Assembly (NCBI GenBank): GCA_951406725.2
Contig: OX597836.1
Span: 33,914,001-33,978,000 of the forward strand
DNA: 64,000 nucleotides
From: Octopus vulgaris
Lineage: Eukaryota
Direction of reading: 5' to 3'
Below are positions 49,963-53,559 of the stretch, in pieces (positions within the stretch are counted from its first letter, which is position 1; each line of letters opens with the position of its first letter). The translations under genes were made by a program, and so were the position numbers. Under the pieces are notes generated by a model that made no database searches, was not told the origin of the DNA, and saw only the letters and a program-made list of their open reading frames with translations.

Positions 49963-50381
49963 TCAAAGAAAAATATTTCGAAATAACTATGTAAAAAATT
50001 ATATTCAGAGAACAGAATGCCAGCAGCCTTTGGCGTAGACGTTGTTGTATGAAGCGTATTTTTTACACAAACGCAAAATACAAAATATAGGAACATTTCT
50101 TCCACAAAGGTTGTTGACATTCTGTTTGTTATCTGAATAAATTTTTTGAAATACTTGAAAAAAAAAAAATTTTTTTGAAATACTTGAAAAAAAAAAAAAA
50201 ATTTTTTTTAATATTACGACTGTGTGGCTGTGTGGTAAGAAGCTTGCCTCCCAGTCACATGATTCCAGGTTCAGTCCCAATGTGTGGCACCTTGGGCAAG
50301 TGTCTTCTACTATTGCCTCGGGCCGACTAAAAGCTTTTTAGTGGATTTGGTAGATGGAAACTAAAAGAAGCCTGTCGTATG

Positions 50382-50412
<31 letters not shown>

Positions 50413-50657
50413 GAGTGTATTTTTACTTTGTTAACAATTAACACGGAAAAAAAAAATAAATAGTTACCAGGGCAGCAAAAATCTCACAAGTAAAGGTGTT
50501 GTAACTCCTTGTTTATAAAGGTAGAAACTTCGTGTTTACGTTGAATATTTTGAATAATATGAATATACCATTCTTTTGAATAGTATCAGTGGAATTTTTG
50601 AAACATGTGTCGAAAATAAAAAATATTTGATTACACCTGCGTTAACTCCATTTTTTA

Positions 50658-50756
<99 letters not shown>

Positions 50757-50844: not shown

Positions 50845-51090
50845 TACTACTTTATTATCTCCCCTTCTTCCTAGCTTTCCTGTGTGACCCTTCTGTCCGG
50901 CATTCGCCATGATAGATCGCTAGCCACTAAACCTTTTTCTATTTTCTCTCCCTGGTTATTTCTGTGTTCCTTTCTGTAGAAGAGCGTAGGCTTGAAGCGT
51001 AAAATCTTTCTCACTTCCCGAGCGTTAAACTAATACATCTGTTTCTGGTTTATACACCCGCCTTCGTCTTTTTTTTTGTAGATTCTCACT
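50845..51090 (+). mobile_element. Third copy of the cassette with a hammerhead-like motif (50970-51004)
   Basis: CTTT CTGTAGA A GAGC-GTAG-GCTT GAAGCGTA AAAT. Confidence 0.75.
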
Positions 51091-51419: not shown

Positions 51420-51427
<8 letters not shown>

Positions 51428-51513
51428 GTTGTATACTGTCAATCTAACACGAACGTGACAGTAGGGGGGTACCTGTCACGTTCGTGTTAGATTGACAGTA
51501 TACAACCATTCTA
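51420..51513. repeat. Perfect ~42-bp-arm inverted repeat next to (TA)n
   Basis: ATAGAATGGTTGTATACTGTCAATCTAACACGAACGTGACAG, loop TAGGGGGGTAC, then the exact reverse complement. Confidence 0.95.
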
Positions 51514-51900
51514 TCGCCCCACCACCGTACATGTCTCTACGAGAGATTTAGAAATCTAGTATATATATATATATTAAGTGTACTGGTCGGTCAGTGAATG
51601 TGTGAGTGCATGTACATAATACCTACATCCATCCATCTATCCATCCATCCATCCATCCATCCATCCATTAATCCATCCGTTGTTGCGCACACTCTATTTT
51701 GGAGATAGCATATTTAACACTGATATTTGGTTTTGTATTTTGTGATCATGTTTTAAGACGGGAAAGACCTTTGATTGGTTCTTCGTATCTTAGTGAAAGC
51801 TCTCCAGCAGTGACTACCCTTCTTTTTTTAATATAAAGCCTACATTCTCCGATGTATTCCTCCATTTTTAAAAGTGCTTGAACGTGATTTGTGTTTCTGT

Positions 51901-52057
51901 GGGAGTGGGTGTGTGGTAAGCAGCTTGCTTACCAGCCACATGGTTCCGGGTTCAGTCCCACTGCGTGGTACTTTGGGCAAGTGTCTCCCACTATAGCCTC
52001 GGGCCGACCAAAGCGTTGTGAGTGGATTTGGTAGACGGAAACCGAAAGAAGCCCGTC

Positions 52058-52130
<73 letters not shown>

Positions 52131-52329
52131 CAATAGGTGAATGAATTATCCTATGTTTATCGTCAGCATGGAAAATTTGCCTTGTTGCCGAGAGAGGCTC
52201 CCTTTCTTTCCTGATGAGAAGATTGCATCATACACCCTTTATTCCTTTGGAATGAAACCATGTGGTCTTCGAAACATATGTCGAGAGTAAAGGAATTTTG
52301 TTAACATCTTCGTTCGACTCCATTCTTTC

Positions 52330-52363
<34 letters not shown>

Positions 52364-52581
52364 GCACGTTTGTATATATTTGTGCCTCTGTGTTTGTCCC
52401 ACCAACATTGCTTAACAACCGATGCTGGCGTGTTTATGCTTCGCTAACCTAACGGTTTGGCAAAACAGGCCGATAGAATAAGTACTACGCTTACAAGGAA
52501 TAACCCCTGGCGTCGATTTGCTCGACTAAAGGTGGTACTCCAGCATGGCCGCTGTCAAATGATTGAAACAAGTAAAAGAGA
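51901..52581 (+). mobile_element. SINE family A interrupted in its internal (TA)n by a hammerhead cassette (~52130-52335)
   Basis: 5' module 51901-52058; 3' module about 52380-52581. Confidence 0.88.
52201..52293 (+). ncRNA. Canonical type I hammerhead ribozyme with extended stem II
   Basis: CCTTTCTTTC CTGATGA GAAGATTGCAT..ATGTGGTCTTC GAA ACATATGT C GAGAGTAAAGG. 11-bp stem II (with G-U pairs), palindromic stem III, GUC site; predicted cleavage after 52282. Confidence 0.9.
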
Positions 52582-52754
52582 GTTTCAGTGACAAATCAGT
52601 CCTTTTTACACAAATCCACACACATAGATATATTCATTCATTCACACTCACACACACGCACGCACACACACAGATGGAAAGAGAAAGAGAGACAGAGAGA
52701 GGTGGCGGAGAGGGTGACAAAACCAGACAGATGGAGTGGAAGCTGACATTTAAT

Positions 52755-52911: not shown

Positions 52912-53221
52912 TTTGTCCAAGCTTGGTCTCCTAAAAAGTTTGTCCAAGCTTGGTCTCCTAAAAAGTTTGTCCAAGCTTGGTCTCCTAAAAAGTTTGTCCA
53001 AGCTTGGTCTCATACAAAGTTTGTCCAAGCTTGGTCTCCTAAAAAGTTTGTCCAAGCTCGGTCTCCTAAAAAGTTTGTCCAAGCTTGGTCTCCTAAAAAG
53101 TTTGTCCAAGCTTGGTCTCCTAAAAAGTTTGTCCAAGCTTGGTCTCCTAAAAAGTTTGTCCAAGCTTGGTCTCCTAAAAAGGTTGTCCAAGCTTGGTCTC
53201 CTAAAGAGGTTGTCCAAGCTT
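52912..53221. repeat. 27-bp minisatellite, ~11.5 copies
   Basis: Unit TTTGTCCAAGCTTGGTCTCCTAAAAAG; copies are nearly identical with no spacers. Confidence 0.97.
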
Positions 53222-53559
53222 GTCCGAGCATGGAAGATAGTTGGATTGTCTCTCTAACTAAGGGAGGCTTTAGAACGCATCAAAGAAGCTACATACGTGA
53301 TGCATAGTTGCTAACTATGCATCTCTACGTACAGGGATGTGTAGAACAGAATGTGCACCAGGAAGCGGTCCAAAACGTCATGCGCATATTCACCAAAACA
53401 AGTTTTGTAGCACCTACTGCAAGAGGCGCCCATCATTGACACATCTGCACGAAACAATGTAATTCCCATGACGGTCTCTAGAGACACGTCCTTGCTTTAA
53501 ATGTTTAAGATAGTAAACAAGCAGTAGTATGGGGTCAAAAGTTGCAGCCGCCATGCATG

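Follow-up and report, generated by a model that had tools for sequence, protein, structure and literature searches.

A hammerhead motif beside an octopus SINE promoter is very probably a passenger in a truncated, part-inverted copy of a Penelope-like retroelement

The analyzed window, a stretch of 64,000 nucleotides from Octopus vulgaris, contains a hammerhead motif downstream of a SINE head. The cassette that carries it occupies the (TA)n stretch of an older SINE and is very probably a pLTR, cut down and partly inverted, from a Penelope-like retroelement of Hydra-like type; the hammerhead is likely silent at this place. The family of this element comprises about 1,800 copies; that one of them lies inside the (TA)n of a SINE is expected, and the locus is ordinary. 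Hammerheads in Penelope pLTRs, targeting of (TA)n, inverted stubs and one-sided tails are already in print. The case nevertheless carries a caution: that a hammerhead follows a Pol III head does not in itself make it a SINE ribozyme. Two side results, addressed to retroelement specialists, are the strict pairing of a short and a long end within insertions, where the tail is four times as long as those published, and the targeting of (TA)n by a family that lacks the linker cysteines.

The motif occupies 52201..52293 on the forward strand and has CUGANGA, GAAA and NUH in the order of a type I hammerhead core. The boxes are CTGATGA at 52211-52217 and GAAA at 52271-52274, the cut triplet is GTC with C17 at 52282, and the predicted cut falls after C52282. 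Three helices surround the core, with the open ends in stem I. Stem I joins 52201-52210 with 52283-52293 (5 bp, a bulged T at 52288 and another 5 bp), stem II joins 52218-52228 with 52260-52270 (11 bp, including four G.U or U.G pairs), and stem III is provided by the palindrome ACATATGT at 52274-52281. The exact core and GUC site, the bulged stem I of about 10 bp, the 11-bp stem II and the palindromic stem III had all been proposed in the original prediction, and the sequence bears them out. The 31-nt loop of stem II proposed there has the right length but is not open, since it contains an inner hairpin of 8 bp (52238-52245 with 52249-52256). Judged by its sequence, this is a genuine type I motif, of the kind with a palindromic stem III that is expected to work as a dimer.

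The type I hammerheads of Penelope-like elements, as presented in the available parts of PMC4209133, are alike in several respects. They reside in pLTRs, where most occur alone, in truncated copies, or in oppositely oriented pairs, and they have a long helix II, a small palindromic helix III and G10.1-C11.1, dimers being expected. Compared with them, the octopus motif has a longer stem I (10 bp) and a longer stem II (11 bp plus the inner hairpin), and it lacks the extra base between positions 9 and 10.1.

A type I descriptor applied to both strands matched once in the 64-kb window, compared with no match in 100 block-wise shuffles of the dinucleotide type; it detected no second complete hammerhead in the window. 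The Rfam scan, named earlier as a check, returned no hammerhead, with 0 matches at the gathering score and none for this class among 102 matches up to E 10. An Rfam match is not a defining feature of the type I hammerhead class. The folding energy of the motif is not unusual (z -1.12). Another repeat, with two copies in the window at 50974-51010 (+) and about 41334 (-), shows a small hammerhead-like layout with the variant core CTGTAGA instead of CTGANGA, and resembles a further Penelope-type end.

Conserved copies, the absence of which had been regarded as an argument against a ribozyme, are numerous: a 28-base hammerhead key has 1,779 genome matches at no more than one mismatch, while a control key has 0. 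Among 82 copies, the variable cells number 8 of 491 in the CUGAnGA box, 39 of 814 in stem I and 92 of 729 in the internal loop. The core is intact in 70 of the 82, with the caveat that the 3' half of the motif served as the search key. In a set of 12 rows that includes a subfamily and two sister families besides the family itself (the three families being about 70-77% alike), the core is constant, and N7, H17 and the stems vary. Across families, 94% of stem cells are paired. Three of 18 pairs have changed on both sides over three families and are thus compensatory, and the covariation score was equalled by one of 500 shuffles; because the independent lineages are few, the covariation is support and not proof. 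Of 30 5' ends of copies, one falls at the predicted cut, ambiguously, and cleavage as the process that sets these ends was rejected for want of clustering there.

This lack of a cleavage footprint, together with the Rfam result and the unremarkable folding energy, is what one would expect of a chance or non-functional look-alike within a repeat. Against this, none of the 100 shuffles yielded the motif, and its core is invariant while the neutral positions N7 and H17 and the stems vary over three families. Its position in the pLTR is, moreover, the site of the Hydra-clade hammerheads described in the available parts of PMC8557442. We therefore assign this explanation only the slightest probability and treat the motif as a genuine type I hammerhead.

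Predictions of folding differ between the monomer and the dimer. In the bare motif, stems I and II are predicted with probabilities of 0.7-0.98, and stem III of the monomer is limited to 2 bp with a predicted probability of 0.01. Stem III extends to 8 bp in the predicted dimer, and the unconstrained minimum for two strands is a double hammerhead (-54.6 vs. 2 x -23.6). The predicted gain from the palindrome in the dimer is -7.4 kcal/mol, compared with -5.9 kcal/mol for most scrambles, a difference of about 1.5, and one of 25 distinct scrambles outdid the native palindrome. In transcripts that extend beyond the bare motif stem I is predicted to be absent (probability at most 0.06, and 0.01 in the native pLTR), and no hammerhead fold is predicted in transcripts of SINE length. 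The predicted loss of stem I in longer contexts agrees with a hammerhead that works with protein assistance, as the available text of PMC11167929 describes it. In a tandem transcript of the parent element, two hammerheads 3.2 kb apart would pair through the palindrome and complete stem III, and the hammerhead would then cut the RNA of the parent element as a dimer or with the help of a protein. A lone hammerhead with a stem III of 2 bp would cut poorly or not at all.

The composition of the cassette was revealed by its copies. A genome search with the cassette gave 1,813 candidates, of which 40 were scored; in many candidates query bases 51-210 match on one strand and bases 3-52 on the other strand, 110 bases on. 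Thus, 52176-52335 corresponds to the sense portion of a longer repeat, whose far end is present, inverted, at 52128-52177. The inverted arm (52128..52177, reverse strand) represents the last 50 pLTR bases, 331-380 of a 380-base reference, with the "long" end outward, and it matches the opposite strand of other copies 110 bases downstream of the sense arm. The sense arm (52176..52335, forward strand) is a 5'-truncated pLTR that begins at position 61 and runs to the "short" end near 229; it overlaps the inverted arm by 2 bases. Its 160 bases recur at 98-99% identity in dispersed copies, where 110 further bases follow; it is 99.4% identical to the closest other copies (1 of 160 differs), and its end coincides with that of the terminal pLTR in the full-length copy L057. 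The original prediction had described a cassette at 52130..52335 in sense orientation. This description holds for the hammerhead part and fails for the first 50 bases, which are inverted, so that no all-sense cassette exists. On these matches, the hammerhead of the cassette can be identified as a passenger of the pLTR of a Penelope-like element and not as a part of the SINE.

At least 12 loci combine an inverted tail with a sense hammerhead at a similar length, which raises the question of whether the 208-base cassette is a non-autonomous unit, retrozyme-like or MITE-like, that moves as it is. The junction of the arms differs at each locus, however, and that of the window is unique in the 2.8-Gb genome; the truncation points of copies are spread evenly, and no tandem 208-base array occurs among the loci fetched. 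A unit of this kind is extremely improbable. The metazoan non-LTR retrozymes, in the available text of bioRxiv 10.64898/2026.07.22.740005, likewise have a hammerhead derived from a pLTR. They are tandem non-coding hammerhead units, whereas the octopus cassette has a single truncated arm and a protein-coding parent.

The host SINE is abundant, with at least 20 related heads in the window. Its 5' half (51900..52058) and its 3' half (52385..52583) are both on the forward strand, and its internal (TA)n flanks the insert on both sides, the left part at 52059..52127 being the target site and the right part lying at 52333..52360. Compared with the majority base in 37 copies, the 5' half differs at 9 of 157 columns; the 3' half, compared in this way with 33 copies, differs at 24 of 194. 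Overall, 33 of 351 SINE columns (about 9%) depart from the family majority, and the insert departs from its nearest copies at 1 of 160; hence the insert is likely younger. The SINE head contains an A-box-like stretch (51906-51916) and a B-box-like stretch (51949-51959), which we take to be such from the Pol III consensus, and one of the nine columns off the majority, 51909, falls into the former. ARAGORN found no tRNA gene in the window. Between the SINE head and the hammerhead lies a T4 run (52127..52130, forward strand), a likely Pol III stop, as T4 runs act as Pol III terminators; the earlier remark that T-runs upstream may terminate Pol III agrees with this.

Nesting of the insert in a SINE is likely no commoner than chance. 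A SINE half faces the insertion across the microsatellite in 12 of 89 insertions (both halves in 3), compared with 25 of 280 (TA)n arrays, of which 6 of 85 come from the window and 19 of 195 from flanks (Fisher p 0.23); 170 of 178 ends were in view, and the distance rules differ slightly. Among the 12 nested cases, a single hammerhead is in sense in five and antisense in three, three have one each way, and one has none. The junction between the SINE and the insert was found once in the genome. A composite of SINE and hammerhead amplified as one was rejected because of this junction and the chance rate of nesting. The functional tie between hammerhead and SINE suggested by the original prediction is likewise not supported, given the pLTR origin, the one-off junction and the chance-level nesting.

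The same observations bear on a working SINE-ribozyme chimera, in which Pol III would transcribe from the SINE head through the T4 run and the hammerhead would cut in trans with a transcript of the family. The hammerhead does stand in sense behind a Pol III-type head with its core intact, a second T4 run at 52296-52299 right after the motif would provide a neat end, and there is a precedent in the schistosome SINE-like hammerheads, where the available text of PMC6765202 places a type I hammerhead near a Pol III-type promoter. Still, with a unique junction, nesting at the chance rate and five sense against three antisense nested single hammerheads, together with the upstream T4 run, the A-box-like change at 51909, a SINE diverged by about 9% and no hammerhead fold predicted in transcripts of SINE length, a chimera is very unlikely. 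The schistosome elements, in which SINE and hammerhead are amplified together, and the retrozymes amplify as units, often in tandem, in the available descriptions; the octopus combination, with its unique junction and chance-level nesting, is a single nested accident and not tandem. Our literature search found no relevant octopus SINE with a hammerhead.

The preferred explanation, a pLTR stub inserted into the (TA)n of an older SINE, involves several steps. The enzyme of the element would cut both strands of (TA)n, and reverse transcription would be primed twice, at the long site, where the copy would break off after 50 bases, and at the short site (about 160 bases). The two cDNAs would then be joined head to head across the 2-base overlap. 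Transcription from the SINE promoter would end at the T4 run. Because the T4 run is upstream and there is no dimer partner in cis, the copy at this locus is likely silent. Two other features lie nearby in the window: a perfect hairpin at 51421-51513, whose arms measure about 43 bases each and whose loop has 8, adjoins (TA)n and is probably a fold-back insertion of another element, and a tandem array at 52914-53222 consists of about 11 copies of a 27-base unit.

The parent element is visible in the longer copies. Upstream of the pLTR they contain an ORF with the RT motifs QFDIS, YRDD and NFLD, which ends in a C-terminal nuclease of the GIY-YIG type according to motifs and alignment; a CCHH-type nuclease was rejected by alignment. 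Copy L057 is a full pLTR-ORF-pLTR unit of 3.2 kb, whose two hammerheads are separated by 3,205 bases. A stop and frame breaks interrupt its ORF, and no fully intact ORF was found among the copies read. Pfam gave nothing above the cut-off for the ORF (RVT_1 at E 0.017 only) or for nine relatives, and a PDB sequence search with the ORF gave no match. Look-alikes from the Atlas provide a lead: the nuclease part scores 0.94-0.96 to clusters named GIY-YIG, with Pfam on 11% of members, and the RT part 0.93-0.97, with RVT_1 on 12-13% of members. The nearest named protein relative, at 53%, comes from Octopus sinensis. Full-length relatives are 27-36% identical and have the Hydra motifs in common; of 209 pattern matches from a metagenome scan, none was confirmed as a relative. 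As far as sequence goes, the pLTR-ORF-pLTR layout, the combination of RT and GIY-YIG, and the inverted truncated copies make this a Penelope-like element as defined in the available parts of PMC4209133 and PMC8557442. Two features of EN+ Penelope-like elements, a hammerhead in the pLTR and an optional tail at one end, are present as well.

Within this group, the closest resemblance is to the Hydra clade as described in the available parts of PMC8557442 (e.g., Hydra-1_Obim and Penelope-13_HM). The shared features are a single ORF with RT and C-terminal GIY-YIG, DKT in place of DKG, the absence of CCHH, CxxC and CxH at the C terminus, a hammerhead behind the ORF, a (TA)n target and an inverted 5'-truncated copy. 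The octopus family differs in that it is without CxCX5C, reads RWL for RWK in L057 (the relatives P0003-P0008 have RWK), and is 3.2 kb long, compared with "generally <3 kb" for the clade. The CxCX5C linker between RT and EN was found in 0 of 21 distinct open copies of the family; it is present in 6 of 6 aligned relatives and in seven Hydra rows of the PMC8557442 supplement. The linker region here is an Asn/Ser-rich stretch of about 130 residues (L016, L023, L044, L058 and others), and Asn-rich inserts between RT and EN also occur in Adineta Pen, according to the available text of PMC3846280. Because the CxCX5C linker is absent, we call the element Hydra-like and do not file it in the Hydra clade. 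Identity with Hydra-1_Obim was rejected, as the hammerhead sequence and the protein differ by eye.

Some further observations concern individual copies. On the reverse strand of L057 (3963-4014), a pyrimidine-rich stretch with CAG at its end directly follows the long end; it is about 40 bases upstream of the ORF start and may be the splice acceptor of a 5' intron. Among the listed contigs of sequencing runs, none showed an intron-like joint over the pLTR and the ORF start, and none bridged the junction of the window, results that for contigs say nothing about expression. At L052:191-2119, a 643-residue open frame beside a family copy encodes what appears by eye to be an unrelated LINE-type reverse transcriptase.

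The ends of insertions were studied in 90 loci (L061-L150), taken from the first 100 listed exact matches to the key, where adjacent matches share a locus and three places were omitted. Two sites account for most of the 141 pLTR 3' ends: 62 are at the short site (near 229 of 380) and 71 at the long site (373-380), the remainder being elsewhere (7) or at a locus edge (1). The spacing of the two sites is about 150 nt, which is the length of the tail, in three sister families. A TA run follows 118 of 133 ends, compared with 7% in flanks and 12% in the window. Contigs from several sequencing runs agree with the existence of two ends, as both termini of the family appear in them as loose ends with TA next to them. 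Both ends were in view in 47 two-armed insertions, after three duplicate loci had been dropped. All 44 of these that have both ends at the two sites pair a short with a long end, the other three have one broken end, and no short+short or long+long insertion occurs among the 47. The copy in the window obeys this pairing, with the long end on the left and the short end on the right. In 34 of the 44, the long arm extends beyond the short site, an indication of two templates or of strand displacement.

Comparable behavior is described, in the available parts of the respective papers, for PAc, the Poseidon of Anolis (PMC11167929), and for the tail of Adineta Pen (PMC3846280). In both there are two start sites of reverse transcription and an optional tail, both strands are cut, the targets are AT-rich, and these texts give no sign of cleaved RNA as a template. 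In contrast, the tail here is about 150 nt in three sister families and not 30-40 nt, it lies upstream of the ORF start and not inside the ORF, and the short+long pairing is counted (44/44). A tail at one end, of 30-40 bp, is known from the accessible parts of PMC8557442 and PMC3846280; a literature search of weak reach found no count of short+long pairing and no tail of 150 nt.

In the text available to us, PMC11167929 links the tail with a pair of start sites for reverse transcription, with the cutting of both strands and with a predicted dimer, and PMC3846280 favors self-priming on an antisense template. Double priming, as we infer it here, competes with the self-priming model. One tentative explanation, to which we give somewhat less than even weight, is that an asymmetric enzyme dimer primes the two cut strands at two fixed RNA sites about 150 nt apart and finds (TA)n without a zinc-finger linker. 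Alternatively, targeting of (TA)n by a linker-less family may reflect mobilization in trans by a finger-bearing family. If the enzyme of the family itself inserts the copies, linker-less targeting would count against the linker hypothesis put forward in the available part of PMC8557442, which credits the zinc-finger linker with the choice of (TA)n. If the explanation by an asymmetric dimer is true, the family is a natural experiment on Penelope-like insertion.

The window also contains a relative of the cassette, which belongs to sister family B. The original prediction placed it at about 50560-50660 and considered it decayed; in fact it spans 50403-50665 and is a young truncated stub. Its inverted long-end arm (50403..50565, reverse strand) is 98-99% identical to many copies, and its sense short-end arm (50570..50665, forward strand), with only the 3' half of a hammerhead, is 97-98% identical. 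The two-armed layout is supported by alignment scores of 87 and 83, compared with a shuffle maximum of 62. The CUGA box is missing because the copy is truncated and not because it has decayed. As had been proposed, a SINE A head precedes the relative (50224-50377), but no SINE 3' half follows it. Complete hammerheads of family B occur in L216-L218, L222 and L226. In sister family C, 8 of 9 two-armed insertions pair a short with a long end, and one is apparently short+short; the second arm of this exception enters foreign sequence without a TA run. At first look, there are 2,600 candidates of family B (L216-L227) and 1,472 of family C (L196-L215), both families being young and having the same hammerhead plan. 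In the dimer, the stem III palindrome of both includes G.U wobbles; family C has GUA as its cut triplet.
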